A stretch of 64,000 nt of DNA from Planctomycetota bacterium (GTDB lineage Bacteria; Planctomycetota; UBA1135; UBA2386). The translations under genes and the position numbers were made by a program. Shown here one piece after another: positions 11,813-36,629 of the stretch (position 1 is its first letter; each line of letters starts with the position of its first letter). The notes under the pieces were generated by a model. It ran no database searches. It was not told the origin of the DNA and was given only the letters and a program-made list of their open reading frames with translations. The DNA is taken from NCBI GenBank assembly GCA_965223545.1, contig OZ245006.1:3616001-3680000 (forward strand), read 5' to 3'.

Positions 11813-12852
11813 GGACCCAGTGCATCGGCCCGCACCGTCGTGCGCCAGCGTCCCGCGCCATTCTCGGCGAAATCGATCGTGGCCCCGGTGAACGCGGCCA
11901 AAACCGCGGCGTTGGTGCGGCTGTGCTCGGTCGGCGCGACGCACGAGAACTCGCCGCCGCCGGCGAGCACCATCGGCACCAAGAGCTGGTCGGCGAGGTG
12001 CGGTCCGACCGCCGCCTGGCTGCCGAGGTAGGCCCGCGCCTCCTGCGCGGCGGCGTGCGCGACGCGCTCGGCCGCGCGGCCCTTCTGGCCGAAGCCGGTG
12101 CACACCTCAGTCACGTGCTCGCTCTCGATCTCGACGTGCACGACATTGCCGGGCCCGGCCGACAACGGCTCCTCGTGCTGGCGGAGTTGTGGCGACCAGG
12201 GGGCGAGCTTGCGGCCGAGGACGTTGAGCTCGCGCTGGGCGATGGCGATCGGGAGGTGCGCGACCGTAGCGCGGCCGCGCACCGCGATCAGACCGCCGCG
12301 GTCGAGCAGCTCGAGCGGACGCAGCGGCTGCGGCGTGACTCTCACCACGAGGCTGCCACCCCCCGCCGGATAGAACCCGGCCCGTTCGATCTCGGCGTCG
12401 ACCGACGCGCCCATCCGACGCAGCAGGGGAAGGAACGTACGGTCGAGGAAGTCGAACGGCGGCGCGAACGGGTTGTGCGTGCCACCCTCGAGCCGCACGA
12501 CGCTCGGTCCCTCGGCGATCAGCAGCGCCGGCAGCACGGTCTGCAGAACGAGCGTCGTGCTACCGGCGGTGCCGACCGCGAAGTGGTACTCTCCACCGCG
12601 AGGCGGCCCCGGCGTGAACGCCAGCGCGCGGGCGCCGAGCGCCGCGCCGGTCACCGTGCCGCGACACACCTCGGCGGCCGCGCGCACCGCGGTCAAGTGC
12701 TGGCGCATGAGGCCGGGCTTTCTGCGGCCCTGGCGGATGGCGTGCAGCGAGCACGGCTGTCCGGTGCAGATCGCCATGGCGAGCGCCGAGCGGACGATCT
12801 GTCCGCCGCCCTCGCCCTGGCTGCCGTCGATCGTGATCATGGCGCGCGTCAT
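11809..12852 (-). CDS. rtcA: RNA 3'-terminal phosphate cyclase
   Basis: IDGSQGEGGGQIVRS, RRKPGLMRQHL, GTAGSTTLVLQT, GFYPAGGG, HLADQL. Confidence 0.97.
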   Translation of the reverse strand: MTRAMITIDGSQGEGGGQIVRSALAMAICTGQPCSLHAIRQGRRKPGLMRQHLTAVRAAAEVCRGTVTGAALGARALAFTPGPPRGGEYHFAVGTAGSTTLVLQTVLPALLIAEGPSVVRLEGGTHNPFAPPFDFLDRTFLPLLRRMGASVDAEIERAGFYPAGGGSLVVRVTPQPLRPLELLDRGGLIAVRGRATVAHLPIAIAQRELNVLGRKLAPWSPQLRQHEEPLSAGPGNVVHVEIESEHVTEVCTGFGQKGRAAERVAHAAAQEARAYLGSQAAVGPHLADQLLVPMVLAGGGEFSCVAPTEHSRTNAAVLAAFTGATIDFAENGAGRWRTTVRADALGP

Positions 12853-14069
12853 CCCTTCACGCAGACGACCTGGCGCAGCGTGTGCACGATGTCCACCAGC
12901 TCGGTCTGTGCCGCCATCACCGCGTCGATGTCCTTGTAGGCCATCGGCGTCTCGTCGATCACGGCGGCGTCCTTGCGGCACTCGATGCCCTCGGTAGCGG
13001 CGATGTGGTCCTCGAGCGAGAACTGCTTCTTGGCCTTGGTACGCGACAGCCTGCGGCCCGCCCCGTGGCTGCAGGAGTGGAAGCTCTCGGCGTTGCCCTT
13101 GCCGCGCACGATGAACGACCGCGCTCCCATCGACCCGGGAATGATGCCGAGCTCGCCGGCCGCTGCGCTCACGGCGCCCTTGCGAGTCACGTACACGTCT
13201 TCGCCGTAGTGCTCCTCGCGTTGCACGTAGTTGTGGTGGCAGTTGACCGCAAGCTCGGTGGTCGTGAACGCCGGCAGCTCCTTGCTCTGCGCCATCGTCT
13301 CCAAGATCGCGGCCATCATGACGTCGCGGTTGGTCCGCGCGTACCGCTGCGCCCAGTCGACCGCGAAGACGTAGTCGTCGAAGTGCTCCGCGCCCTCCTC
13401 GAAGTAGGCCAGGTCCTTGTCGGGCAGGTTGCTCATGTGCCGCTTCATGTCCTTCTGCGCGAGCTGGATGAAGTGCATGCCGATGCGGTTGCCGACGCCG
13501 CGCGAACCGCTGTGCAGCATCACCCACACGCGATCGGCCTCGTCGAGGCAGACCTCGATGAAGTGGTTGCCCGTGCCGAGCGTGCCGAGCTGGGCGTAGT
13601 GCCGGCCTCGATCCAGCCGTGGGTGCTTGGCGATGATCTGCTCATAGCCGGGGCGCAGCTTGCGCCACACCTGCTCGACGCGCGCGGGCGGACTGGCCCA
13701 TGAGCCTCGGTCGTTGCGGCCGCCGCGATGCGTGCGACCGTGCGGCACCGCCCGCTCGATCGCGGCGCGCAGTCCCTTCAACGACTCCGGCAGGTCACTG
13801 GCGTCGAGACTGGTGCGCACCGCCATCATCCCGCAACCGATGTCGACGCCGACGGCTGCCGGGATGATCGCGCCCTTGGTCGGGATCACGCTGCCCACCG
13901 TGGCGCCGATGCCGACGTGCACGTCGGGCATGGCCGCCACCCACTTGTGGATGAACGGCAGGGAAGCGACGTTGCGCAGCTGCGCGATCGCCTCGTCCTC
14001 GGCGGGCACGCCGTGGATCCAGGCCTTGATCGGGGCGCCGTCGGTCTTGATGCGCTGGTAGTCGGTCAT
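12849..14069 (-). CDS. rtcB: RNA-splicing/repair ligase RtcB
   Basis: MPDVH, VGVDIGCGM, GTGNHFIE, LHSGSRG, HHNY, IPGSMG, SCSHGAGR, C-terminal VCVKG. Confidence 0.98.
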   Translation of the reverse strand: MTDYQRIKTDGAPIKAWIHGVPAEDEAIAQLRNVASLPFIHKWVAAMPDVHVGIGATVGSVIPTKGAIIPAAVGVDIGCGMMAVRTSLDASDLPESLKGLRAAIERAVPHGRTHRGGRNDRGSWASPPARVEQVWRKLRPGYEQIIAKHPRLDRGRHYAQLGTLGTGNHFIEVCLDEADRVWVMLHSGSRGVGNRIGMHFIQLAQKDMKRHMSNLPDKDLAYFEEGAEHFDDYVFAVDWAQRYARTNRDVMMAAILETMAQSKELPAFTTTELAVNCHHNYVQREEHYGEDVYVTRKGAVSAAAGELGIIPGSMGARSFIVRGKGNAESFHSCSHGAGRRLSRTKAKKQFSLEDHIAATEGIECRKDAAVIDETPMAYKDIDAVMAAQTELVDIVHTLRQVVCVKG

Positions 14070-14108
14070 GGTAGTGCTCGTGGTTGGTGCAGGATGCACG
14101 GGCGGTAG

Positions 14109-14124
14109 AGCAGCTGCCGTGCCG
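14109..14124 (-). promoter_or_regulatory. Sigma54 (-24/-12) promoter of rtcBA
   Basis: CGGCACG-GCAG-CTGCT on the minus strand matches TGGCACG-N4-TTGC, 40 nt upstream of rtcB. A divergent sigma54 activator is adjacent. Confidence 0.85.
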
Positions 14125-14228
14125 ACCGCCGTCGGTTTCCCCAAGTCTCGGCACGAAGGTGAGTTGGAGCCAGGCCCGCGAATGGCGAGGACAGCCCAAT
14201 CTGATCGATTTGTATAGTGTTTATCTAT

Positions 14229-15875
14229 ATGGATCATCCCCGGCCCGTGACGGTGTTCGGCTTCCTCGGCACCCAGGTAGACCAGGGCTTCCGCGAAGAC
14301 CGGTGGGAGCGCTGGCGCCCCACGGTCGCGCTTTGCCAGCACGAGGACCTGCTGGTGGAGCACTTGGTGCTGTTCTCCGAGCGCGTGCGCGACCGCAAGC
14401 TCTGCGCGCAGGTGACGGACGACATCGCCCTGGTGTCGCCGGAGACTCGGGTCGAGCGGATCGAGCTCGAGCTGCGCAACCCGTGGGACTTCGAGGAGGT
14501 GTACGAGGTCCTGCACCGGTACTGCACCGGCTTCCCGTTCGACCCCGAGCGGCACACCTACCTGCTGCACATGACCACGGGCACGCACGTGACCCAGATC
14601 TGCTCGTTCTTGCTCGCCGAGACGCGGCACTTCCCGGCCTCGCTGCTGCAGACCGTGCCGCCGGGCCGCGATGCGCGCAGCCGCGGCGCCGCCGGCAGCT
14701 ACCAGATCATCGACCTCGACCTCTCGCGCTACGACCGCATCGCGCAGCGTTTCGCCGACGAGCATGCGCAGGGCCAGGCGCTGCTCAAGTCCGGCATCGC
14801 GACGCGCAACGAGGCGTTCAACGACCAGGTGCGGCAGATCGAGCAGGTGGCGCTGGCCTCCAGCGCGCCGATCCTGCTGCTGGGACCGACCGGCGCCGGC
14901 AAGTCCCAGCTCGCGGCGCGCATCTACGCGCTCAAGAAGCAGCGCCACAAGACGGCGGAGCGGTTCGTCGAGGTCAATTGCGCCACCCTGCGCGGCGACC
15001 AGGCGATGGCGGCGCTGTTCGGCCACGTCAAGGGCGCGTTCACCGGCGCGCAGCGCGACCGGCCCGGTCTGTTGCGCACCGCCGACGGCGGCATCCTGTT
15101 CCTCGACGAGATCGGTGAGCTCGGCCTCGACGAGCAGGCGATGCTGCTGCGGGCCCTCGAAGAGGGCAAGTTCTTGCCGGTGGGCGCGGACCGTGAGGTC
15201 GAGAGTCGTTTCCAGCTGGTCGCCGGCACCAACTGCGATTTGGGCGAACGCGTCGCCGCCGGCACCTTCCGCGAAGACCTGCTAGCGCGCATCAATCTGT
15301 GGACGTTCCGTCTGCCCGGGCTGGGCGAGCGCCGCGAGGACATCGAGCCCAACGTCGACTACGAACTGGCGCAGTTCGCCGCGCGCGAGGGGCGCAAAGT
15401 CGCCTTCAGCCGCGAAGCCCGCGCGCGCTACCTCGCCTTCGCGACCGGTCCCGAAGGACACTGGCGCGGCAACTTCCGCGACCTCAACGCCAGCGTCACG
15501 CGGCTCGCCACCCTGTGCCGCGGCGGCCGCATCACGCGGACCGACGTCGACCGCGAGTTGGCGCGGCTGCGCGCAGACTGGCGGCACGCGGCTGGCCCGG
15601 CCGACGCCGCCACTGCGGATGCGGCCCTGCTGCGTGGACTCCTCGGCGACGAGGCGGTCGCGGACCTCGATCTGTTCGACGTCGTGCAGCTCGCCGAGGT
15701 CGTGCGCACGTGCCAGCGGAGCCCGACCCTCTCGGCCGCCGGGCGTATCCTGTTCGCGGCTTCGCGCCGCGCGCGCAGCAGCACGAATGACGCCGACCGC
15801 GTGCGCAAGTACCTGCGCCGATTCGGCCTCGACTTCGCGGCCGTCAACCGCGCGCCGGCGCAACCCGGCCCGTGA
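14229..15875 (+). CDS. rtcR: Sigma54-dependent RNA repair transcriptional activator RtcR
   Basis: N-terminal RWERWRPTVALCQH and LHMTTGTHV (RtcR CARF-like domain). GPTGAGKS, GAFTGA, LFLDEIG. C-terminal NDADRVRKYLRRFGL. Confidence 0.97.
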   Translation: MDHPRPVTVFGFLGTQVDQGFREDRWERWRPTVALCQHEDLLVEHLVLFSERVRDRKLCAQVTDDIALVSPETRVERIELELRNPWDFEEVYEVLHRYCTGFPFDPERHTYLLHMTTGTHVTQICSFLLAETRHFPASLLQTVPPGRDARSRGAAGSYQIIDLDLSRYDRIAQRFADEHAQGQALLKSGIATRNEAFNDQVRQIEQVALASSAPILLLGPTGAGKSQLAARIYALKKQRHKTAERFVEVNCATLRGDQAMAALFGHVKGAFTGAQRDRPGLLRTADGGILFLDEIGELGLDEQAMLLRALEEGKFLPVGADREVESRFQLVAGTNCDLGERVAAGTFREDLLARINLWTFRLPGLGERREDIEPNVDYELAQFAAREGRKVAFSREARARYLAFATGPEGHWRGNFRDLNASVTRLATLCRGGRITRTDVDRELARLRADWRHAAGPADAATADAALLRGLLGDEAVADLDLFDVVQLAEVVRTCQRSPTLSAAGRILFAASRRARSSTNDADRVRKYLRRFGLDFAAVNRAPAQPGP

Positions 15876-15921: not shown

Positions 15922-18174
15922 ATGTTGCTGATCTGGCAAATGCTCGTGCTCGTGCTCGTTGCGCTTGCCACACCGGCATCAACGGCGCAACAGTGGGTTC
16001 GCACCGGCTCGTTCCACGCTGGCGACACGATCGCTGGAGCGTATGACGAGGGGCGCGGCCGCCTCGTGGTTCTGCGACAAGCGAACAACTCCACCGAGCT
16101 GTGGGAGTGGGATGGAGTGGCTTGGGCCCACCGAAGAGTCGCGCCGAATCCGCCGGCGGGATTCGCCGGTCAGATGGCCTACGACTCGTCCCGAGGAGTC
16201 TGTGTGTTGGTCGGCGTCGCGACGGGACAGTGGCTGCAAACCTGGACGTGGGACGGCGTCTCGTGGACCGGTCATTCCGGCCCAAGCCCTGCGCAACGCT
16301 GGCACTTCTGCCTGGCGGACGACCCGGTTCGAAGTCGCGTCGTGCTGTGCGGCGGCAGCCTCCTCCCGACCTGGAGCTCTGGGACCGCCAACGACGAAAC
16401 ATGGACTTGGGACGGAAGTGGGTGGCAACGCCAATCGGTCGACGTTCGCCCACCTCCCCGGCGTGGTGCCGGCATGGCGTTTGACGCGGCCCGCTCGGTC
16501 ATGGTTCTGTACGGCGGGGTTGGGGATAGCTTGCGCCAAGTCCACGATGATACTTGGGAGTGGGATGGGAGCACTTGGAGCCAGGCCTTCCCAAGCGCGA
16601 CACCGGGCGTCAATCGAGAGCCCGTGACGCAGATGACGTTCGACCCGGTCCGGTCGGAGACACTGCTCGTGACCATTACCAAGCCCCTGTCCGGTTCGGG
16701 GACGGCCGAGACGTGGACCTTTGACGGGAGAGCATGGCGATCCCACAACACGGGGCCGACCCTCTCGTACCACGACACGCCGCTTCTCTTGTCGGATCCA
16801 TCCGCAGGGCGCGTGTTGTCCCTCTTTCCCAGAAATCCGGGGAGCAGCCCGCCGTTTCCCGCGGAGCACGATGCGTGGCAATGGAACGGATCGGTCTGGT
16901 CACCCCTGCCGGTGGGTGGTGGACCTTCGCGACGCGTGGGCTCGGCCTTGGCCTACGACGCCGCACGCGGCGAGGTACTGCTGTTCGGGGGCGCCAACCA
17001 CGGCAACGCCCTCGACGGCACGTTCGATGATACTTGGCTCTGGGATGGACAGAGTTGGCGCGAGCACAAGGGAGCCCCGATCTTCGAACGGCGTGACGCC
17101 GCGGTTTGCTACGACTCGGCTCGGCAGAGGGTGGTCCTGTTCGGCGGCAGGGACCGCACTTGGGGCTACCCTCTGATCCCACGTGATACCCACGAGTGGG
17201 ATGGCACGCAGTGGATCACTCTGCCCGGCGGTCCGGGGAATCGCTTCGGGGCCGCCATGGCCTTCGACGAGCGCCGATCTCGGGCTGTGCTGTTCGGCGG
17301 ACAAGTGAGCCCCTACTACGGCGGCGGCGGGCTGCAGGACACGTGGGAGTGGGACGGCACCACCTGGACGCAAGCGCTGCCTGCGACCAAGCCGCCGCCC
17401 TGCACGACTCCGGCAATGGCATACGACCCGGTCCGCGGCGAGATCGTCATGGTCTGCGCTAGCACGACTTGGACCTACGACGGAGTGGATTGGTCGATGC
17501 GGCAACCGACGAGGTCACCGTCGCCTCGACCTGGCGCGGCGATGACCTACGACCCCACACGTGGAGCCGTTGTCTTCGCGGGAGGTTATGGGCAATCGAC
17601 GTTCGAACTCTGGGAGTGGAGCGGAGGCGATTGGTCCCCGAGGCAGGTTCGTGGAGGTCCGAGTACGCGTGGCGGCGCTGGCCTCGTCTTCGATCGACGG
17701 CGCCGCGAACTGTTCCTGCACGGTGGCGAAGCCAACTTGGGAACCGGGCCATTGGGAGGCACGTGGCGCCTGGGTGACCACATCATCCCGGCGGACGTCG
17801 CTATCGGCGACGCTGGCTGCTTCGGGCCGGTCGCCCGACCAGTGACTCGGCCATATGGGATCCCGACTCTTGGCAACAACGGTTTCGCGCTCGACGTGTA
17901 CGTGAGTGGCGTGAATCAGACCGGGGCCATGCTGGTGGGTTCCGCGGCCGCATCGGTCAGTCTCGGGGCCTGTGTGCTGGGCGTGGATCCCCTGCGTTCG
18001 ATCGTGTGGCCGTTCACCAGCAACACGCAGGGCTTCGCCAGCCTGCGGCTTCCGATCGGAGCCACCGCCGCGCTGGCGAGTGTGGAGCTGTACTCGCAAG
18101 CGGCGGTGCTCACCATGGGGACTGGGCTGGGAGTCACACTGACCAACGATCTTATCGTTCGCTTGGGTCACTGA
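15922..18174 (+). CDS. Secreted Kelch/galactose-oxidase-like beta-propeller protein with shared C-terminal domain
   Basis: Signal peptide ending STAQ. About 12 repeats of MAYDxxRxxxVLFGG...DTWEWDGxxW. Confidence 0.88.
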   Translation: MLLIWQMLVLVLVALATPASTAQQWVRTGSFHAGDTIAGAYDEGRGRLVVLRQANNSTELWEWDGVAWAHRRVAPNPPAGFAGQMAYDSSRGVCVLVGVATGQWLQTWTWDGVSWTGHSGPSPAQRWHFCLADDPVRSRVVLCGGSLLPTWSSGTANDETWTWDGSGWQRQSVDVRPPPRRGAGMAFDAARSVMVLYGGVGDSLRQVHDDTWEWDGSTWSQAFPSATPGVNREPVTQMTFDPVRSETLLVTITKPLSGSGTAETWTFDGRAWRSHNTGPTLSYHDTPLLLSDPSAGRVLSLFPRNPGSSPPFPAEHDAWQWNGSVWSPLPVGGGPSRRVGSALAYDAARGEVLLFGGANHGNALDGTFDDTWLWDGQSWREHKGAPIFERRDAAVCYDSARQRVVLFGGRDRTWGYPLIPRDTHEWDGTQWITLPGGPGNRFGAAMAFDERRSRAVLFGGQVSPYYGGGGLQDTWEWDGTTWTQALPATKPPPCTTPAMAYDPVRGEIVMVCASTTWTYDGVDWSMRQPTRSPSPRPGAAMTYDPTRGAVVFAGGYGQSTFELWEWSGGDWSPRQVRGGPSTRGGAGLVFDRRRRELFLHGGEANLGTGPLGGTWRLGDHIIPADVAIGDAGCFGPVARPVTRPYGIPTLGNNGFALDVYVSGVNQTGAMLVGSAAASVSLGACVLGVDPLRSIVWPFTSNTQGFASLRLPIGATAALASVELYSQAAVLTMGTGLGVTLTNDLIVRLGH

Positions 18175-18214
18175 CACCGATACAAACCACCTGCCGGGCG
18201 CGTCGCGACTCCGA

Positions 18215-18400
18215 GCGAGCATGGGGCACGGCCCCACTCAGCTGTCGCGAAAGATCTCTGCTTCCCTGAATCGGTTGCGCCATGACTGACCGTCTGCGGC
18301 TTCACGCCAAGTTCGCCCGCGAAGTCCCCATTCGTCCCAACCATCTGCTGCAAGCAAGATCATCCGAGCGCGATCAACTTGTCGATGCGGGACCAATCTA
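18215..18400 (-). pseudogene. IS630-family transposase N-terminal HTH remnant (frameshifted)
   Basis: RARMILLAADG / TNGDFAGELGVKPQTVS / WRNRFRE pieces in different frames. Limits approximate. Confidence 0.7.
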
Positions 18401-18423
18401 CGCCGCGACCACTGCGGGTCCAT

Positions 18424-20112
18424 CTAGAGCTTCTCTAAAAGCAGCGGCCGGTTCTGCACAGTCATCACTCGCCCAGGCTCCTTGACTCGCACTGCAGCCA
18501 CCGCTCGAAAACCCGAGAATACTGGCTGGACCGCCAAACCATGACTCATGCTGACCGCCGACGGATCGATCTCGATAAACGTATCAGCGCCCTCGCGCCG
18601 GAGCCTGCACACCCCACTGGTAAAAGACCGCAGACCTGAGTTGTCAAAGAATTCGTAATCCACAGACACTCTATGCGCAAGCTTCGTATTGGTTGCACTT
18701 TTGACGTGAATCCTCGCCGGCTCTCCGGCTTCAAGAAAGGCGGTCCATTCACCCGCACGCCGAATGTCCTCACCCCGGACCGAGTGACGGTAGTATCCCT
18801 TTTTGATTACCTCAAGATTGCTCGCTCCGTCGGGGACGTCACTCAACTGGTAGACCCTCTCGCCCCCTACCACAGTGCTGGGCGGAGTATACGGATCTCG
18901 CTCTTCGTACACGCTCTCCAACCAGCTGCGTGACCGGCTGAGCGTAGCTCCTTCCTTGCCCGTCCACAACACTTTGACCGCACCCGTAAGCGGGGTTCTG
19001 CTCTGCGCATCCCGCAGACGCAAGTCGAAGACCTCGCATTGCTCCAGCTGCACTACGTAGTCCTCATCCTCCAGACTGACGTCTCTCTCTACAACAGCCC
19101 GGTGAGCTTCCGCACTCGCACGCAACTCTAACGTCGACGCCCCGGCTGCAATGCCGGAGATCATAAACCGGCCGCTCTCGTCCGTCTTTGCAAGACGGTA
19201 CTCGTGCTTACCGGAGGCCGTACCGACCAAGACTTCCACGGTTGCCTCCGCAAGCAACCCAGAAACCGCGCTGATCACCGTCCCGCCAAAGGTCAGACCA
19301 GAGGCCATCGTAATCGTCCCCAGATTTTTAGTCGCGGAGCCAACATCCACACCCGATATTCGCGCAGTCATATACTGCGGATGTCTCAACACCACTTCAT
19401 AGATTCCAGCACGCAAGCCGTGTAAGCACGCACTACCAAAGGTGTCTGTTCGCGCGCTCACTGCCAGACCACCCCCGAAGAGCCGCGCACGAACATGCAT
19501 CGCCCGTGCATCATCACCACCGATCACGATTCCTTCGCCTTTGCTGGCTTCCTGTAGACAGGCCTCCACCAGCACGTCCGCTAGGCGCATCCGGTCTACG
19601 CTTTGCACAACCAGACAACATGAACTACCACGACCTAACCGGATCTCGACCCGTTCCTCGACGTCGCTGACCTCCACGACGGTTGGCACAAAAGCGGCAT
19701 GTTCGGCCAAGACCCTCAGGGGAACCACTCCCTCGAACTCCACAGGTATCTCAAGCGCGAAACCCCCATCGACATCAGTGCGCTGAACTTTCCTGTAGCT
19801 CGCGCTGCAACTCACTGCCGCGCCCTCAAGCGGCTCACCTTCAGGTGAAAGGACTGTGCCCACAATTGCTGCCGATGCACTGGCTCTTTCCCCCACGTCT
19901 TGTTGCCCGGGAGCACTCTGAGCAACTCGGCTCCTGTCACCCAGTTGTTGCGCGCCAGGCTGCCCTACTTGCGGATGCCCCATGCTGGTCTCCAACGGAG
20001 ATCCGCCTCCGTTCGGTGCACGCGCTCGCTCACCAAAGCAAATCCAACCCACTACAGTCGCGGTCGTCGCCATTGCCAACAGAAGCGCTACACGTTTTGG
20101 CCAATGAGTCAT
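18424..20112 (-). CDS. Membrane-anchored carboxypeptidase regulatory-like domain protein
   Basis: N-terminal hydrophobic helix. GTVLSPEGEPLEGAAV, TDVDGGF, TDESGRF repeats. Confidence 0.75.
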   Translation of the reverse strand: MTHWPKRVALLLAMATTATVVGWICFGERARAPNGGGSPLETSMGHPQVGQPGAQQLGDRSRVAQSAPGQQDVGERASASAAIVGTVLSPEGEPLEGAAVSCSASYRKVQRTDVDGGFALEIPVEFEGVVPLRVLAEHAAFVPTVVEVSDVEERVEIRLGRGSSCCLVVQSVDRMRLADVLVEACLQEASKGEGIVIGGDDARAMHVRARLFGGGLAVSARTDTFGSACLHGLRAGIYEVVLRHPQYMTARISGVDVGSATKNLGTITMASGLTFGGTVISAVSGLLAEATVEVLVGTASGKHEYRLAKTDESGRFMISGIAAGASTLELRASAEAHRAVVERDVSLEDEDYVVQLEQCEVFDLRLRDAQSRTPLTGAVKVLWTGKEGATLSRSRSWLESVYEERDPYTPPSTVVGGERVYQLSDVPDGASNLEVIKKGYYRHSVRGEDIRRAGEWTAFLEAGEPARIHVKSATNTKLAHRVSVDYEFFDNSGLRSFTSGVCRLRREGADTFIEIDPSAVSMSHGLAVQPVFSGFRAVAAVRVKEPGRVMTVQNRPLLLEKL

Positions 20113-20120
20113 GGCTTTTC

Positions 20121-22724
20121 CTATCGATGGTCCACCGCCGAAAGCGCGCTCTCCCAGCGCTGCAAGAAGCTATCCGAGTGCTTGTCGTCGTGACATTCTA
20201 GACACACTTGCTGTGGAGGCGTCAGCCGAATGTTTTGAGCTGTTGGCGCTCGGACGTGGTCTTGTCCTGCGCCGTGACAGGCTTCACATTGCACGCCCTC
20301 CAAGCCCGCATCAGGCGTGTTCATCGTGAAACCATCTTCCCTACCGAGTCCCAGCACGTGGCAACGCACGCAATTCGGGTTACGAGCTCGGCCTCGCTTG
20401 CGCAGCGTAGCCATCGCACCCGCATGAGCCGTGCCCAACCACTGCACGTACTCCTGCGGATGGCAGCTCTGGCACGCTGCCGCTCCCACGTACTGCTGCT
20501 TCGACCAATCGTCCCAAGCGAATAGCGGGCTAAGATTCGTCATAAGGGACGGGTCTAGCGATACGTGCTGGTAGTGTTGATCGATCTGCGCAACAACCTC
20601 GGCATCGCGCTCAGCATCCGCGGGAAGTTCGATTCTGGATATTGTCGCCCCGCGCAAACGCCCGTCCCCTGAATACGATATCCGCAAATCCGTAATCCCA
20701 TAACTGCGCGCATAGTCGTGCACCAGCAAGGTCTCTCCGACAAGCCCCAATGGTTGTCGCCAAATTTCCGAAGCTTGCTCACCGTTGATAACAATATCTA
20801 CACCCAAGCTACACAGCTGTTTTTGCGTCGGCACAGAAAACCGGCCAATTACGACTACAATGTCGGCCTCGTCCCGTAGTTGCTCAACGAGTTCCGACAA
20901 CTCCCCCGTACCACAGGGGAACTTCACGCCAACTGCGTTACGTTCTAGCGCTTCGCTCAGCGTGCTGTAATTGTGCTTTTCTGAAAGTCCAATGATCCCA
21001 AATCTTTTGCCTTGGCTTTCGGTGGCCACCATCGATCGGAACATCCGCTCGCCACCCTTACTGATCCCGTGACCCAAGAGGACTAGATCCTCACGCTCAA
21101 ACAACTTTGCCGCTACCGATGGCTGTGCTAACAGCTCGCTTGGCCCAACACAAATGGCGTCGTAGCCAACACTTGCCATCGCATCCAAGTGCAACGGAAC
21201 CTCCATTTCCACAAACGGGTCGAGTCGAGGATTCGACGGCCGCGTTGGTAGGAAGTTACCCAAGTCGAGCAGCAGCAACTCCCCGGCCTTCTGCGCATTC
21301 TTGATCGCCGCCACACGACGCGCCAATCCCCCACTTTCGTTGGCGCGACAGCCACAGTTCTCAAGGTGCCCGTCGGTGTTTGCCGTGACCAGAATACGCA
21401 GTTCCTTGGCTTGAGCTCCATCTTCACCGTCATCCGCCGGTGGTTCGGGCACTTCCTCCAACACAAGCTCCCACTCCTTTTCAAAGCCAGCAACAAACGG
21501 TGCCTCCTTAGCCGCTCGGATGTAGACTCCCTCCACGGCGACCCGGTCGGCATCCCCAGATGCCAGCCGGGGCAGATCCTTACCGTCCCAGGAGCGCGTC
21601 AGTTGCGCCAGGCCACCGCGCTCAGCGAGCAGTTGATCGAGCTCGTAAAGCACCGTAGCTGCCTTCGTAGTAACCCACGGTTTGAACTTGCCGTAGAGCT
21701 CAGCGCGGGCCGCGATGTCGCGCTCACGCAACCAGGTGAACTCTAGGGAACTTCTGGCATCGCTGTTGTCCAGCCCAAGGCGCCAAGGCACAACCTGGGC
21801 CAGATACTCTGTCAGGCCGAGGCCAAACCACGGCACAGAATCTGTCGCCGGGTACCATGAACGCACAGCCTCTCGAATCATGCGTCGAAGACTACCAACG
21901 TCCGCCTGCATGATGTCGACGACGATAAATCCCCCACCCTGCCCCTTCTCCAGACGCAAAAGATCGTCCGCCGTAGGAATCAGTGCAATCGCTAGATCTC
22001 GTCGCGGTGGACCAAGAACCCGGTTTAGCTCTGCCAAGATTGCACGCACGCTCCCCACGGTCGCTGAGGGAATCTCGGCGTGAGCGTAGAGCGAACACCT
22101 GGGCTCCTCCGTTTCCATTAGGTGAAGACTCCCCGCAACAAAGCTCCACCCCCAGATCTCTTGTTCAACACTTGCAGCACTCGTCGCCGTGGGAAATGTC
22201 GATACAACACTCCACTGCTCAGGAACCTCTATCGAGAAAGATAACCCGTCGGCAGATACCGGAAGCAACACGCAACTCGCCGCCGTGATATAGCAATAGC
22301 TGTCTGCACTAATGCCCGCGTGCCGCTCCTCTCCACAGGGGACGGATACCTTGCGGACTGGCGGGGTCACGCTGTACGCCACGGTGAACGCCTGATCACT
22401 AGGTGCGATTTCGTAGCAAGTAAATCGGGAAGTCGTTTTCCCTGTTGGCGCATAGCGAGCACGAGGCGTGATCCCCAACAACGTTCCGCTCTCATCCTGC
22501 GCCGAGAGGTTCTCCAGGTTAACAAGCCGGTCAGAAAGCAGAGCACTGAGCAAGGTGCCTGAAGCAGAAGGCGGAAGCTCAAGCCGCACGCCCACCTTAC
22601 CACTCTCGGGATCGGGGCGGATTACATAGTGCGCCGTTTGGACGCCTCGGGAGCTTTGGGCAAATAGGTTCCATGCAAAGAACCCGACTAGAGCCGCGGC
22701 AAACGCTGTCAGCAAGGTCTTCAT
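20121..22724 (-). CDS. Secreted fusion: degenerate M61/M1-like peptidase + UshA/5'-nucleotidase-like CGC domain + tetraheme cytochrome c (c554-like)
   Basis: Signal peptide. REAVRSWYP...WFGLGLTEYLA (gluzincin-like without HExxH). NTDGHLENCGC...GGLARR...DLGN. Four CxxCH: CQSCH, CVRCH, CEACH, CLECH. Confidence 0.8.
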   Translation of the reverse strand: MKTLLTAFAAALVGFFAWNLFAQSSRGVQTAHYVIRPDPESGKVGVRLELPPSASGTLLSALLSDRLVNLENLSAQDESGTLLGITPRARYAPTGKTTSRFTCYEIAPSDQAFTVAYSVTPPVRKVSVPCGEERHAGISADSYCYITAASCVLLPVSADGLSFSIEVPEQWSVVSTFPTATSAASVEQEIWGWSFVAGSLHLMETEEPRCSLYAHAEIPSATVGSVRAILAELNRVLGPPRRDLAIALIPTADDLLRLEKGQGGGFIVVDIMQADVGSLRRMIREAVRSWYPATDSVPWFGLGLTEYLAQVVPWRLGLDNSDARSSLEFTWLRERDIAARAELYGKFKPWVTTKAATVLYELDQLLAERGGLAQLTRSWDGKDLPRLASGDADRVAVEGVYIRAAKEAPFVAGFEKEWELVLEEVPEPPADDGEDGAQAKELRILVTANTDGHLENCGCRANESGGLARRVAAIKNAQKAGELLLLDLGNFLPTRPSNPRLDPFVEMEVPLHLDAMASVGYDAICVGPSELLAQPSVAAKLFEREDLVLLGHGISKGGERMFRSMVATESQGKRFGIIGLSEKHNYSTLSEALERNAVGVKFPCGTGELSELVEQLRDEADIVVVIGRFSVPTQKQLCSLGVDIVINGEQASEIWRQPLGLVGETLLVHDYARSYGITDLRISYSGDGRLRGATISRIELPADAERDAEVVAQIDQHYQHVSLDPSLMTNLSPLFAWDDWSKQQYVGAAACQSCHPQEYVQWLGTAHAGAMATLRKRGRARNPNCVRCHVLGLGREDGFTMNTPDAGLEGVQCEACHGAGQDHVRAPTAQNIRLTPPQQVCLECHDDKHSDSFLQRWESALSAVDHR

Positions 22725-22758
22725 CGTGGCAAGTCTCTCTCGGTCCGTGCGGGCAAAC

Positions 22759-22788
22759 GTGAGTCCGGGAGCGCACTCCCGGACTCAC
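22759..22788. repeat. Perfect 13-bp inverted repeat (stem-loop) between peptide gene and cytochrome fusion
   Basis: GTGAGTCCGGGAG-CGCA-CTCCCGGACTCAC. Only a short GTTT follows on the minus strand. Confidence 0.9.
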
Positions 22789-22811
22789 AACTGGCAAAGA
22801 CGGTCTACCGC

Positions 22812-23072
22812 CTACGGCTCCTGCGGCTCGCTGTTACACTGTTCAGTGTCGCAGCGCTGTGCCGGAACGTAGCTGATCAGGCAGGCCAGGTGCGTCTTCT
22901 TTTCGCACTCACTCTTGCTTTTGCACTGCTCGTTCGGGCAGCCGGGAATCGTGGACTCCATGGACATCATGGAGCTCACTGCCGGCAGGCAGTTGGCCTG
23001 AGGAACAGCGCTGCTCAAAGCGCCAGTCAGGAGGCCGGCCAGCAGGCCGGCGAGAATGAACGACTTTCTCAT
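22812..23072 (-). CDS. Small secreted Cys-rich peptide (86 aa, 7 Cys)
   Basis: GAAAGGA SD upstream. Signal MRKSFILAGLLAGLLTGALSSA. CPNEQC and CDTEQC repeats. Confidence 0.7.
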   Translation of the reverse strand: MRKSFILAGLLAGLLTGALSSAVPQANCLPAVSSMMSMESTIPGCPNEQCKSKSECEKKTHLACLISYVPAQRCDTEQCNSEPQEP

Positions 23073-23799
23073 CAGGATTACATTCCTTTCAAAGAAGTTT
23101 CGGTTCCGAAGAACCACTCTCCGGCGACCCCCATGGCCGCAGGTACAGCCAAAACGTAACTCTCCGCCCCCTCCTGTCGATCCCCGACATTCCCGCACTC
23201 CATGTATGTGGGCAAGCTGTTCGGAGCTCCAGAATCTATGGAAGCTCTGCTCCATCAGTATTTCGACAGTCCAGCAGCTGCACTGCTGACTCACACCCGG
23301 GAACCCTATTGGACACAACGCTTTCTGAAACCGGAGACAACGAGCGACCGGCCTCTCTACTGCCTTCCGACTGCGTGGGCGACATTGGACCGGCCACACC
23401 GTTGCGCGATGTTTTGTCGCGCCCGAAGACCTGGCTTCCCTGGGTCTCGGATGTCTCAGCGCGGCCGGGGCCGCAACCAAGCTCGGATGCCGCTCTACTC
23501 GGAGCGGTTTGGAAGGTCCAACCCATCCGCCGCCGCGCTGAGCCAGGAGGCACTGTCTCTCCGAGCCTCCGGCGCGGCGGCGCCGTTGTCAGGGCGGCGG
23601 CGTCGCCTCGAGAATATTGTCGCCGCTCGGTGACTCGTGGCGCCGGTGGCTCAGACCGGCGATATGTCTCGAATGGTTGCCCGGGAAACTTCGGTTCGAG
23701 GCCGGCGTGAACGCCGGCCTCTCTCTGTTAACACACGGCAAGGTCGCGGCCGGCTCACCGACGAAGAGTTCGCCGCCGCAACTCGCCCCTACGCCTAAC

Positions 23800-27917: not shown

Positions 27918-30900
27918 CTACCGCTTCGACCCGCGGTCGAGCAGCGCTCGTGCCTGGACGTGCACCGCTCCGAACCGCTCGTCCCATTCGGTGTCGAGCA
28001 CGTGTTGCAGCGTCTTCTTCGCCGCAGCCTCGTCGCCGGTCGCGCGCTGCATTCGCGCCACACCGAGCCAGCCCTCGGGCTCGTCGGTGCGGATGCGCAC
28101 GACACAGCGCCACTGTCGCAGCGCGTCGAGGTGGCGCGCCTGCTGCTCGCGCTGCAGGGCGAGCAGCCGGTGGCCGGCAGCTTCCTCGGGCAGCACCTCG
28201 ACCAAGCTGGTGAAGGCCCGCTCGCTCGCCTCGCCCTGACCGAGCGCGGCGTAGCGCGTCCCCAGCTGGACGAAGCGCGGCAGCGCGGTGGGGTCGTGCG
28301 CGGCGGCGATGCGCATCGCCTCGCAGGCCGCGGCGGGGTCTCCCATCGCCTCGAGCACGCCGATCAGCGCGTCGTGCACCTCGACGTCCTCGGGTTGCAG
28401 GGCCCGTGCCAGCTCGAGCTGGCGCGCGGCCGTCGCCAGCTCACCCCGTTCTCGATAGACCTCCCCCAGCGCCTTGCGGATCACCGGTGCATCGACGCCG
28501 CGCGCCGCGACCTCGGCATCCCAACCGCGGACGTAGCCGGCCAGGTCGGAGAGCTTGGCGAGCACCGCGTGCAGCTTCTGCAGAGCGTCGCCGCGCCGGC
28601 GCGGCTCGCCACTCCACGCGACCACGGCCGCCGCCGCGGCATCGACCGCCGCCGCGTCCTGGCCAAGCGCCGCTCGTGCCAACGCCAGGCTGCCGTAGTA
28701 GTTCGACAGGGTGTTCGCGTTCGGGCGCTGGCCGCGCTCGTGCGCGGCGATGGCCGCGTCGAACAGCTCCGCCGCGCGACGCCAGAACTCGCAGCGCAGC
28801 GCGACCTGCGCCACGGCCGCCATCGCCCCCTCGTCCCAACGTCCGACCCGTTCGAGCCGCTCGACGGTCGCGTCGAGGACCCCGCGCGCGGCTTCGTCCG
28901 CTCCGGTCTCGTGCAGACCGCGCACCAGCCGCACGCGGTCGTCGACCCGGTCCGGAAACTCGTCGACCAAACGCCGCGCCAAGGCGACGGACGCCTCCCA
29001 CTGCCGGCGGTCCTGCAGCCAGTGCATCAGCTGCCGCAGGGCGTCGCCCGACAGCGGCGCCCGCGCGTCGGCGCGCCGCAGGAGATCGATGGCGTCCGCG
29101 TACCGCTGCAGGCCGTGCCACAAGTAGTCGGCGACGTGCCGCTGGCGCGCGACCGAATCCTCGGCCGCGGCCGCGATCTCGAGCGCGCGCCGCGCGAACA
29201 GATCGGCCTTCTCCTTCCAGACGTAGGAGCCACGGCCGTACATCGAGCGCTGCCGCGAATCCAACCCGGTGAGGTCGCCGACCAGCGCATCCATCACCAC
29301 GCGCAGCAGCCGCGGCTCGAGGTCACCGAGCTCGGGCTGCTCCTGCCGCCAGCGCGCCATCGTGCCGGCGAAGGTCTGCCAGCCGCCGCGGCGCACCCGC
29401 GCGAGCCAGCGTGGCTCGGTCTCGATGCGATGCAACAGCAGACGCAGGCCGGCATGCGGCCCGGCGATGCCGGCGAGCGTGCCGGCGGTGTCGACGAACA
29501 ACGCCTGGCTGTCTTGCGCGGCCCGGGTGGCCAGCTCCGGCAGCGCTGTCGCGGCAAACCGCTGCAGATCGGCGGCGACACCACCGACCGAGGCTTCGCG
29601 ATGCGCGGAGCCGTGCAGCAAGAGAAACTGGGTCAAGCCCTCGCGCAGCGAGGTCACCGGCATGGAGAAGAGTGCGTCCTGCATCGCCGCGCGCGCGCCC
29701 CGGTACAAGTCCGCGCCACGGCCGAGCGCCACCGCGCCGCCCTGGCCGAGACACCCGACCCAGAGCTCGAAGCGGCGCAGCTGCAGCCACGTGCGCTGGG
29801 CTTCGGTGACGTCACGGTCGAGCTCGGCGACCAAGAGGTCCTCGGCGACCCGGAACCGGCCGCGCGACTGGTACCAAGTCGACAGCGTTGCGAGCGCCTC
29901 GTTGACGGCGGCAATGTCGTCGGGACGGGGCGCTGTTCGATACGCCGCCAACGCGGCACGCACGCCGTCGATCGCGGCGTCCTGCGCGCCGTAGGCCCAC
30001 TCGGTGCGACCCAGCGACAGGGCGACCGCCAGCCGCTCGCCGAGATCGCGCTGCGCGACGCGCTCGAGCTCGCGCAGCTGGCGCCGCTGTTCGTCGGCGA
30101 AGCGGCGGTCGGCGATCACGCCCATCCCGGCGAGCAGCGTCGCCATCATCGGCGGCTCGCCAGGCGCCCAGTCACCGCGCGCACTGTCGCGCAACCAGCG
30201 CAGACCACGGTCGGCGTGCGGGCCCGGCGCATCCAGCACCTCGGACGCCCGCCGCTCGACCAAGAAGCCGAGCATGGTCAGCGCGCGCCGGTCGGCGGCG
30301 TTCGGGTCGGCGGCCAGCAGGGATTCGATCCGCTCCACGACCGCGTCACAGGTCGCCTCTTCGTGCACTTGTGCGATCAACCGGCCGACGCGCTCGAGCA
30401 TCGCGTAGGCGGTCTGCGGCGAGTGGCCGAGCAAACCGTCCGCCGTCGCCTGCAGCAAGCGGTGGTCCTTCACCGCCGCGTACAGGTTCTCGACCAACCA
30501 GAGCTGCGCCGCCGGATCTCCGGCCTTGCGCAGCAAGGCGGGCAGAGCGCGGAACACCTGCGCGTCGAGATCACCGGGCACGCCCGCGCCTCGCCGCGCC
30601 ACCGACTGCCGCGCCCGCTGCAGGAGACCGATCAGCTCGTGCTCGGGCATGGTCGCGAAGCGCTGGCGCACGGCGCGCTTCCGCGCTTCCAGATCACCGA
30701 GCGCGAGCTGCCAGCCCGCCATCGCCTCGAACTCCGCAGCCTCGAGCGCGCCGGCCTCGGCGACGCGCTCGAGCTCACGCACCGCGTCGCGCAGCGCACC
30801 GCGCTCGGCCAGCAGGTATGCCAACGCCACCCGCCACGGGCTGTGTACGTCGGCCGGTGTCAGCCAAGTGCGCACGACGGCCTCCAGCGGCTCCGGCCGA

Positions 30901-33900
30901 TCCAACGCCAGCAGCAAACGCCACAGCTGGTAGCGCCAATCCAGATCCCCGCTCTCGGCCGCGACCCCGGCGCGGTACAGCGCGATGACGCCATCGACCA
31001 GCGGCTCGGGCGCCGCCGTCTGGCAGGCGGCGTGGCTCAGGACCAGCGAGCAACGCTCGCGCAGCGCGCGGCGCCACGCCGCGGTCGGGCGTTCCGGCGC
31101 CTCCTCCACGGCGCCCTCCGCCGCGGCGTCTTCCCCCGACAGCTCGGCGAGCAGGGCGCGGGCACGCCGGTCGACGTCGGCCAGGTCGGCGCCGGTCTCG
31201 ACGGCGAAGCACAGCGCTTCGACAGCCAAGAATGCCCGGTGCGCGGGGTCCGCCTCTTCCGCGGCGCGCGCCAAGCGTTCCGCCAGCCCCGCGCGCGCAG
31301 CTGCGAGCGCGTTGCGCTCTGCCTCGCGCCGCGCCGCGCGGCTCAGCGCTTCGAGTGCCGCGGGCTCGCCGAGCGCGTGCCGGCGGCGCTGCTCGAGCAA
31401 GCCCGTGGCGAGCTGGCGGACGGCGCCCGCGATTGCGCCATCGCGCGCCGCGGCCTCTGCTTTGGGCGACACGTGCGCCGCCAACGTCGCCAGCGCCTCG
31501 TCCTCGAGCGCGCGACTCCAGGGCTCCCGCAACAGACGCGGGAGGAGCGCTGCCGCCGCTGCCGCGCGCGTCTCGGCCGCGGCCGAGAGAAGCCACTGCC
31601 GCGCCACCGCCAAAGCCTCGGCACGCTGCTCGCCGGCGTCGTGAATGCGCAGCAGCTCGCGCGCGAGCACTGCACCGGCCTCGGGCTCGGCCCGCCAACG
31701 CGCGTGCAGCAGCGCCACCAAGCTCGCGCGCAGCTCCACGTCGACCGCATCCGCTTGCCATTCCAACACCGCCAAGAGCAGCTGCAGTCGCGGCAAGGGC
31801 ATGGTGGCGATCGCCCGGTCCTCGAGCAGCCGGCCCCGGACTTCATCGCGCAGTGCGGCCCCGGCATCGGTGCGCGCAAAGCGGTAGTCGCGCAGCACGC
31901 GCGCGGCGACGTCCGCGTAGGGCGCACCGGCGTCGAGCCACGGCAGCACGGCGGCGCGCAGCGCGTCCGCAAACCGGAGATCGACCGCGTACGAGCCGAA
32001 GTTCCAACCCCGCCCCAGCACGATCGAAACCGCGGCGTGCAACCGCGCGGCGTGCGCGCGGCGGACATCATCGCCGGCGTCGGCGCCGCGCGGCGCCTCG
32101 GCAAGCCGCGCCGCCACCCACGCGTCCGCCGCATCCTCGGCGCCGAACAGGTAGCGCGCCGCGATGTAGCGGTCGGCGGCGACTGCCCGCGTCGGGTGCT
32201 CGCCGATCCAGGTCTCGGTCAACGCCAGCAGCGCCGGCCCATCGCGGCGGCTCCACAGCAGTTCCGTGCACCGCGTGTAGAGATCGTTGGCCTCGTGGGC
32301 CGTCAGTCGCTTGCGCGCATCCAATGCCGCTTGCAGGAGCTGCGCCGCCTCGCCGGTGCGCGAGCACTGCATCAGAGCGCGCGCGCACTCCCACACCGCC
32401 GTCGGCTCACCCGAGGCGTCGGCCAGCAGCGCCCGGCGCAAGACCAGGGCGTCGGCCCAGCGGCCGGCGCGCTCCAGCGTCTTGGCTTGCCAATCGCGGA
32501 GCTGGCGCTCGGCGAAGTCGGTGTCGGGTCCCGCGTCGGCGAAGGCGGGGCGCAGCGCCTCGACCAAAGCGAGGACCTCCGGCGGCTCGAGATGCCGCGA
32601 CGCGACCTGCAGCACGTGCGCGCCGAGCACGGCGCCGCGGCCCACGAGCCGCGCCGCCGCCGCCGAGACCACACGCTCCGCCTGCGCGCTGAGCTCCGCG
32701 CCGCGGCGTCCCAGCGCCATCGCGGCAAACCGCAACCATTCGGCCGATTGCTCCTCCGACCCCGCGAGCAGAGGTGCCATCGCGTCCCGACACTCGTCCC
32801 AGCTCTGACGGGCGGCGAAGTGCAGCGCCACCGTCAGCACGTCGATCGGTCGGCCGCGCCCCTCGTGCACCGCGCGCCGCGCCACCGCCAGCGAAGGCGC
32901 CGGTCCGTCGAGCAGCAGCGCTCCGGCCGGCGCCGCGCGCGCCGCGAGCTGGGCCGCAGCGTCCGCGGCGGGTACCGATTCCAGCGCGATGGACTGCCGC
33001 ATCACGCGGCGGCCTTCGCCATCGAAGCTCTCCGCGTGCGTCGCCCACCACACGCCACCGACCTCGACGAAGTCACCGAACGTCGCCCGCTGGGTCAGCG
33101 CGTCGCCGGTCCACACGCGGCGCTCGCGCAGCACGGCGCGGCGCACGTCGACGACGAGCTCGGTGCGGTCGGTGCGCGGCTCCGGCGGCACGAGCTCGAC
33201 CACCGCGACGTCGTCATCGGCGCGCAGCAGCCGGGCCTTCCAGCCGGCGTACGCCCCCGACCAGTCCGTGAACGACGCATCGCCGACCAACCTGGGCCAG
33301 GCGTCCGCGTCGGCCGCAGCCGACGGCCGGCGGCGCCCCAAGGCCAAGTCCGCCGACAGTGCCGCACGGAAACCCGCGAAGTTCCAGGATTCGTACGCCA
33401 GCCCCGCGCGCGGGGCGGAGCGGGCGTGCCACTCGTGTCCCAGGACCAGCAACTCGCTGCGCTGCACGCCGACGACGCCCCGTCGCAGGGCGTGGATGCG
33501 GGTGGTCTCGCCGCGCCAACGCAGCCCGTCGGTCCTCGCCGCCACCGCCGTGCTGCGATCGAGCGAGAGGAGCACGCGGCGGACCTCTTCTGGCCACGCG
33601 GCCGGCGCCGCGACCGGAGCCCTGATGGGCGCGGCAGGCGGCAGCGGCGGAAAGCCCAGGCTGCCGAGATCGGCGCGCGGCGGCACCGGCCCCCAGGCCG
33701 TGTTCGCATCCCGACGCCAGCGCCCTCCCGACGCCGGCGGTGCCATCGCCGCCGAGCGCCGTTGGTCACCGAGAAAGAACGAGTCCGCCGAGGCCCCCGG
33801 CAGATTCGCCATCGACTCGCTCGCCGGCAACGGGGTCTCGAGCTCCTCGGCGCTGCGCTCGTCATCGAACGGCGCCGCGGTCATCGGACCGCGCGCGCTG

Positions 33901-36374: not shown

Positions 36375-36629
36375 GCGCGCTCCCCGCGGCAAAGAGGGCA
36401 GGCTCGAGATGCCGCCCACGAAGAAAGATGCGAGGCGCCGTGCAAAGTTCCCGAGCGACCCGGCGGCGGCGCGACGGCGGCTCCGGTTCGGCACATGCTA
36501 TCGCCGGGTCCACGCCGAGGGACCGCCGCGCGCCCCGCGGTTTCCGATTCCGGGGATTCCGACTCGATGTCGAATCCCGCAGTGCACCGCCGTCCCCTGG
36601 GCAACCATTGACGCCAAGGAACCATCCCG

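Follow-up and report, generated by a model that had tools for sequence, protein, structure and literature searches.

A gene for a short, exported, cysteine-rich peptide and a gene for a three-domain fusion protein form a conserved pair, and this two-gene system spans Planctomycetota, Eisenbacteria and one genome of Acidobacteriota. With regard to its function, we see about an even chance that the fusion protein is a dedicated extracytoplasmic enzyme which forms the disulfides of the exported six-cysteine peptide. The pair lies in the window analyzed here, a 64,000-nucleotide stretch of DNA from a Planctomycetota bacterium (Table 1). The layout described in an initial annotation of this DNA, i.e., three co-oriented genes, a Shine-Dalgarno sequence, a small product with seven cysteines and two CxxEQC repeats, a 13-bp hairpin and a gap of 8 nt between the P0003 and P0002 open reading frames (ORFs), was found in full, on the minus strand.

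Table 1. Features of the peptide–fusion region, numbered from the first position of the window.
Feature	Positions	Strand	Remarks
Peptide P0001 ORF	22812..23072	-	86-aa precursor: hydrophobic signal region, spacer, six-Cys core; single copy in genome
Shine-Dalgarno-like AAGGA of the peptide gene	23084..23088	-	from sequence
Six-Cys core C45-C79 of P0001	22836..22940	-	spacing 4-5-7-9-4
Perfect 13-bp hairpin, 4-nt loop, 3' of the peptide stop	22759..22788		from sequence and folding z
P0002, 867 aa, three domains, hydrophobic segment at the N-terminus	20121..22724	-	proposed maturase
Predicted M61/M1 gluzincin-fold domain without HExxH	21450..22643	-	proposed to hold the peptide
Predicted UshA-like 5'-nucleotidase-fold domain without GNHE	20550..21407	-
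Cys457-Gly-Cys459	21348..21356	-	Cys459 matches the UshA-like family's selenocysteine position
Tetraheme cytochrome c554-like domain	20124..20507	-	four CxxCH plus invariant His 767, 823, 849, 866
P0003, 562-aa N-terminally anchored CarboxypepD_reg repeat protein	18424..20112	-	three stretches
Low-GC island holding the three genes	18200..23450		58-60% GC vs 70% in the genome

The cysteines of P0001 occupy positions 28, 45, 50, 56, 64, 74 and 79, and its two repeats read CPNEQC and CDTEQC. An orthologue with 55% identity is encoded at locus L030, a contig labelled Brocadiaceae on which all three genes are present. When the 35 core codons were compared, 14 were identical, 13 differed synonymously and 8 non-synonymously, with third positions accounting for 16 of the 31 base differences; this pattern, together with the identity of the orthologue, indicates that the P0001 ORF is beyond chance. 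Since the orthologue keeps neither Cys28 nor the CxxEQC repeat in its exact form, the meaningful unit is the even six-cysteine core from C45 to C79, for which three disulfides are predicted, and the odd cysteine count and CxxEQC repeats emphasized in the initial annotation were discarded as significant features. Window positions 17500-23492 showed no differences in two short-read assemblies from one study, an agreement which is not independent because both assemblies possibly derive from the source sample.

The linkage between peptide and fusion genes was examined with a filter that accepted ORFs on the same strand within 900 nt, of 55-130 aa, with a hydrophobic N-terminus and at least six cysteines after residue 28. 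Among the matches listed, such a peptide was found at 33 of 48 fusion loci; where at least 500 nt were available on both sides (32 loci), it was present at 25, compared with 0 of 73 unfused UshA-like loci under the same filter, a control from which loci with a middle-domain score above 130 were left out as likely truncated fusions. Counted by clusters of 70% identity, the peptide was present in 19 of 24. The recurrence of small cysteine-rich ORFs near homologues of the fusion, which had been proposed as the check on this system, was thus borne out (25/32 vs 0/73), but not their upstream position, a peptide gene downstream of the fusion being the more frequent arrangement. No peptide neighbor was seen at 7 of the 32 flanked loci (among the matches listed) or at L256.

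A similar association was observed in whole genomes. Among 101 genomes of the Eisenbacteria phylum, 18 were fusion-positive and 15 matched the peptide profile, all of them within those 18, while the 83 fusion-negative genomes gave no match; two of the remaining three fusion-positive genomes had a divergent six-cysteine neighbor. At further genome loci the peptide was present in 20 of 21 cases, including one among 201 genomes of the Acidobacteria phylum. These locus sets are not independent of each other: many members are closely related, and some peptides of the genome loci are identical to ones from metagenomes. The peptide of one Eisenbacteria-phylum locus is 32% identical to P0001 over 62 residues, a hint that the two genes are transferred as a unit.

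Three arrangements among these loci can be recorded separately. At L134:899-7575, two fusion genes in tandem enclose a pair of differing peptide genes. The fusions of L116, L166 and L170 form a clade without a peptide neighbor, each right behind an OmpA/TSP3 gene, and possibly have a different substrate. Finally, G478, which carries L256, was both the sole fusion-positive Eisenbacteria-phylum genome with VKOR and the sole one without a peptide neighbor, which is a single case.

Altogether, this undescribed two-gene peptide system comprises at least 51 distinct precursors, falling into 31 core clusters. The 51 unique precursors have six core cysteines in 44 cases, eight in six and seven in one, i.e., an even number in 50 of 51, and easing the filter to four cysteines around the first 48 loci (among the matches listed) added no similar peptide; the counts and the lack of four-cysteine relatives argue that cysteines have been gained in pairs. 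The usual frame has C-x4-C at both ends, to which the spacing of P0001 conforms. A spacer motif with the consensus SPYxSAL precedes the variable cores in 44 of 51 precursors and Ala-x-Ala stands just ahead of the core in 38, P0001 and its orthologue matching the spacer motif only loosely. Within the cores, cysteine alone is conserved: the inter-cysteine loops range from 4 to 20 residues, the number of histidines from 0 to 4 and the net charge from -3 to +5. No significant match was obtained for 30 of the peptides against Pfam and NCBIfam (single-member matches had E values of 0.003 or worse), and the best match of the peptides in the PDB had an E value of 3. A short precursor gene, a conserved leader, a variable core and a linked enzyme gene, as in RiPP systems, are found here, and the variable cores on a fixed cysteine frame suggest target-binding peptides, either antagonistic or signalling.

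The fusion protein P0002 was modelled from an alignment with a pLDDT of 87.5 and a pTM of 0.86, compared with a pLDDT of 34 for the single-sequence model. Comparison of the predicted structure with 48,161 chains gave the order M61/M1 peptidase, 5'-nucleotidase, cytochrome c554. In this model, the first domain resembled 4fgm (Z 22.0, rmsd 5.1, 364 residues aligned) and 8j9d (Z 19.7, rmsd 5.3, 368 aligned), which would place the N-half among the M61/M1 gluzincins by fold; the modelled middle domain resembled the 5'-nucleotidase 7d0v (Z 26.2, rmsd 3.0, 273 aligned) and the modelled heme domain cytochrome c554 1bvb (Z 11.3, rmsd 2.6, 126 aligned). The Foldseek matches listed were all of the 5'-nucleotidase type. 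At the sequence level, Pfam recognized the heme domain only (PF13435, cytochrome c554; 61.8 bits against a gathering cut-off of 20.8), a domain-level assignment, and NF041198 (UshA_like_PCGU) scored 201.4 bits, under its curated cut-off of 275 bits. The architecture of that family is nevertheless present in P0002, with CGC at 457-459 in a 5'-nucleotidase fold followed by four CxxCH motifs.

Both hydrolase folds of the fusion look dead. The gluzincin zinc motif, HExxH, is missing from P0002 (we place its lost position at about residues 284-288 by the gluzincin consensus, not by residue-level superposition), and no proteolysis is therefore expected; a string of this form, counted irrespective of its position, occurs in one of 49 N-halves. 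GNHE was found in none of the 49 full-length members, the Asp of DLG is all that is retained of the dimetal ligands (GNHE and flanking His), and hemes take the place of the UshA C-terminal substrate domain in P0002.

The Cys-Gly-Cys and heme motifs are conserved. Glu455, Gly458, Cys459, the four CxxCH motifs and four more histidines are invariant in the 49 fusions, which amounts to eight heme cysteines and eight histidines, and whereas all 49 have Cys459, Cys457 occurs in 48 of them. The four extra invariant histidines suggest six-coordinate, electron-transferring hemes with no open site, so that all four are likely bis-His coordinated, as judged from the sequences. In the profile alignment, Cys-Gly-Cys stands opposite a cysteine-bearing loop of CD73. 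As the cysteines of that CD73 loop are structural, the motif may not be catalytic. Cys459, on the other hand, matches the selenocysteine position implied by the name of the PCGU model and by the CxU motif; from this position and the conservation of the motif, we infer a redox-active dithiol. The UshA-like family is tabulated as a selenoprotein with a CxU motif in PMC13188914, and PMC2398784 describes most selenoprotein families as thiol oxidoreductase homologues, and names UshA-like as an exception among families with conserved cysteine-based redox motifs. No selenocysteine was seen in fused members, a result to be read with the fact that the pattern used in the metagenome scan could not detect one; a candidate in G479 was dismissed, the flagged TGA being the terminal stop. 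A lipobox-like motif was present in 23 of 49 fusions. Two shorter relatives, P0014 (746 aa) and P0026 (708 aa), keep the dead peptidase and C-x-C and end before the heme domain; either they lack hemes by nature or the genes were called too short.

The host has one copy of each of these three genes of the window, and in addition an unfused UshA-like paralogue. The first search for relatives matched the shared C-half alone (40 of 41 genomes), and as a single sequence the N-half found only itself in a word-indexed collection and nothing in the PDB. A search of 1.84 billion representatives with the N-half gave 25 proteins at E <= 0.001, most of 850-920 aa, and in a 27-row N-half alignment 20 rows had four CxxCH motifs and seven had none. 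The 401 genomes of the host phylum contained one true homologue, G067, from another family (12 non-self matches at E <= 0.01, six of them read, the N-half profile being negative at the 11 loci other than G067); its fusion is preceded by an 87-aa, six-cysteine, signal-bearing ORF and a 13-bp hairpin. A metagenome motif scan yielded at least 121 stretches, with flanks taken for 80, and the fusion set grew to at least 48 loci, five duplicate loci having been dropped. In a quick tree of the shared half, 49 fused proteins formed their own clade against 18 unfused ones (SH-aLRT 100), split into two subclades with peptides in both.

A hairpin follows most peptide genes of relatives too, in line with the gene-then-hairpin layout noted initially. 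In the window, the folding z of the 80 nt past the P0001 stop was -4.2 and that of a 116-nt stretch only -1.98; 71 different perfect hairpins with stems of 13 bp or more occur on the 8.07-Mb host contig. Among 32 peptide genes, z in the 80 nt past the stop was -2 or lower in 21, whether upstream or downstream of the fusion, and near zero or above in five; these z values for 80 nt come from crude dinucleotide-block shuffles. The hairpin likely stabilises the 3' end of the peptide message or acts as an attenuator. An intrinsic terminator was rejected, since no U-tract terminator was called at the hairpin. The hairpins past the peptide stop of L118, L122, L124, L133, L134, L136, L156, L157, L163 and L179 share a centre, GG[CT]G-GCAC-CGCC, that could be a lineage repeat or a site of protein binding or processing.

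The third gene could not be upheld as a member of the system, contrary to the initial annotation: among the matches listed for loci L001-L242, an orthologue of P0003 occurred only at L030, and none was present at the 21 later loci. P0003 was accordingly rejected as a core part and is accessory at best. A different CarboxypepD_reg gene lies upstream at L129, and the host genome has 11 weaker matches to P0003. The low-GC island was likely acquired horizontally; no tRNA that could mark an integration site is present in the window. Bordering the island, a dispersed repeat of about 165 bp (window 23455-23620) gave 189 blastn matches across the genome, with identities of 89-92% for the best ones and some copies in tandem at 195-bp spacing. 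Further out, ORFs at 12849-15875 presumably represent the RNA repair genes rtcB and rtcA and the regulator rtcR, and a 2858-aa ORF at 27918-36494 (minus strand) is one we take to encode a VIT/vWA protein with TPR repeats.

The domains of the fusion are known folds, and RiPPs already provide the logic of a precursor plus a dedicated enzyme. Neither the family libraries nor the literature searched, the latter mostly outside subscription journals, contained the peptide family, the three-domain enzyme or the combination of the two, although supplements of genome-mining studies could list them. The closest known relative is the UshA-like family NF041198, which likewise joins a 5'-nucleotidase fold with a Cys-x-Cys/Sec motif to a tetraheme c domain; the fusion, however, adds a dead peptidase domain of 400 aa and forms its own clade, and the unfused members had no peptide neighbor in 73 of 73 cases. 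The literature searched gave no function for this family. Likeness to cytochrome c554 is limited to the last 130 residues of P0002. The M61/M1 gluzincin peptidases, among them the M61 enzyme MfuP of a RiPP cluster and the M1 enzyme AplP, share the predicted fold (Z 17-22); according to PMC10885120, MfuP acts on a RiPP core, and M61 and M1 folds engage RiPP leaders or cores. Unlike these, the fusion domain lacks HExxH and is joined to a redox module.

As for disulfide-forming systems, Mia40 oxidises cysteine-rich substrates through C-P-C, as stated in PMC4307334, and titles in its reference list have the electrons of the Mia40/Erv1 relay going on to cytochrome c. The fusion resembles this relay in pairing a substrate-binding domain with C-x-C for small cysteine-rich proteins, an analogy of working and not a claim of homology, but differs in having no FAD enzyme, in carrying the binding, thiol and heme parts in one chain and in serving one dedicated substrate. 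The RiPP cluster of sublancin has thiol-disulfide oxidoreductases of its own, BdbA and BdbB. As with these and DsbA/DsbB, a precursor gene with a conserved leader and variable core stands beside the proposed disulfide catalyst, whereas the fusion has no thioredoxin fold or DsbB part, the signal is of the Sec type and not a double-glycine leader, and no conserved transporter or protease was found among the neighbors scanned. Bufferins likewise have a signal-bearing, cysteine-rich precursor beside a modifying enzyme. The present pair resembles them in this arrangement and differs in its cysteine frame and in having no MNIO gene (no PF05114 in the three genes of the window).

A paired-cysteine precursor with a conserved spacer and variable core, adjoining a protein with a dead peptidase, Cys-x-Cys and hemes, is most simply read as a substrate and its dedicated disulfide catalyst. 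This joins observed gene linkage and motifs with folds predicted by modelling and with conjectural steps, and the composite stands, in our estimate, evenly balanced between right and wrong. Of the three options left by the initial annotation, maturation, sensing and metal binding, the evidence favours maturation over the other two. The precursor would be exported via its hydrophobic N-terminus, and the dead M61/M1 domain would bind the conserved spacer or the unfolded core. The Cys457-Gly-Cys459 disulfide would then exchange with the core thiols, and the four hemes would re-oxidise it, passing electrons to a periplasmic or respiratory acceptor. Cleavage at Ala-x-Ala, a site present in most relatives, would free a three-disulfide miniprotein of 30-45 residues, and the hairpin may keep the peptide message in excess. 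As far as the fold goes, electrons could flow in either direction, which counts against a disulfide catalyst.

The same anatomy could indeed run in reverse. The fusion would then be a reductase or metal-loading enzyme, in which the hemes feed Cys-Gly-Cys and keep the six cysteines reduced for metal binding or detoxification. This is unlikely, if the first alternative to be kept in mind: the best PDB sequence match of the profile is the multiheme protein 6i5b, and in one clade the loci adjoin a cluster that is bufferin-like and includes an MNIO gene (PF05114), yet such neighbors are limited to one enzyme cluster at 60% identity, the gain of cysteines in pairs speaks against it, and the ranges of loop length, histidine number and charge are unlike a fixed metal site. 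We also regard as unlikely, and a little more so, that the peptide folds by general means and the fusion serves as its receptor or as an immunity protein, the dead peptidase capturing the mature peptide and then either signalling or inactivating it by reduction of its disulfides. The one-to-one linkage, with peptide types tracking enzyme clades, would fit a ligand and receptor or a toxin and immunity protein equally well, and the lipobox-like motif agrees with this; against it, the fusion has no cytoplasmic or output domain, no signalling gene was conserved among the 29 neighbors scanned, and both the conserved part of the peptide, which is the spacer ahead of the core, and the pairing of two different cores with one enzyme at several loci are as for a leader-directed maturase.

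That the fusion modifies the core oxidatively in some other way, by a persulfide, thioether or cross-link in place of plain disulfides, is improbable. Enzymes of other chemistry do occur within the predicted folds, namely SoxB, a thiosulfohydrolase (2wdc; Z 24.6, rmsd 3.2, 266 aligned), and MslH, an epimerase of lasso peptides (8gq9; Z 13.3, rmsd 4.0, 223 aligned), but no core residue besides cysteine is conserved, and hemes that are six-coordinate, as inferred from the extra histidines, would offer no open site. More improbable still is that the small protein is a subunit or redox shuttle and that the real substrates of the enzyme lie elsewhere. The flanked loci without a peptide neighbor (7 of 32 among the matches listed) and the wide occurrence of unfused UshA-like genes without such a peptide are compatible with this, whereas the hypervariable cores, the tandem peptide duplicates and the hairpin fit a product made in excess.

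The genomic background of thiol oxidation was also surveyed. Cytochrome c maturation is present in the host genome (91% complete), whose search for DsbA, DsbB and VKOR gave none of the three. A mutual exclusion between UshA-like genes and VKOR was rejected, as 19 of 37 VKOR-positive genomes have an UshA-like gene compared with 76 of 151 overall, and the fusion-bearing G067 has VKOR. Within the Eisenbacteria phylum, DsbB and VKOR were both absent from 17 of 18 fusion-positive genomes and from 70 of 83 others, so their absence is not special to fusion carriers. DsbB was found in one of 151 genomes in one set and in none of 101 in the other. As a wider proposal, which we hold tentatively and think rather less probable than not, the UshA-like Cys-x-Cys/tetraheme modules might constitute a heme-coupled, disulfide-forming class that needs no quinone or FAD, a third route beside DsbB and VKOR, with the fusion as a substrate-dedicated form that matures a large, so far unrecognised bacterial family of conotoxin-like three-disulfide miniproteins.

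Should the enzyme oxidise thiols via its hemes, it would be a new type of oxidative-folding catalyst, and such oxidation, if true, would bear on how disulfides are made in lineages nearly devoid of DsbB. The peptide provides a candidate substrate for the UshA-like selenoprotein family, so the chemistry of this family becomes directly testable, and a leader-directed folding enzyme tolerant of variable cores could help to produce disulfide-rich miniproteins.

Several further observations concern the surroundings of related genes. In relatives of the host, unfused UshA-like genes lie behind one for a conserved protein of about 400 aa that is likely exported (G000:C1:7723094-7724419; L004, L005 and L014) and is a candidate substrate or partner of the general UshA-like family. 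UshA-like genes in tandem were present on contig C39 of G435 and in G095, G144, G184, G202 and G119, and in several genomes one gene of such a tandem contains an in-frame TGA, as a selenocysteine form would. In one clade, a cluster that we take to be bufferin-like from its CxGxNxCKG peptide and MNIO gene lies head-to-head with the fusion; the MNIO assignment (PF05114) was confirmed at L123:5831-6727, and a small ORF that diverges from the fusion on its upstream side and encodes the signal-bearing CxGxNxCKG peptide was seen at L123, L128, L137, L141, L144, L153, L173 and L176.
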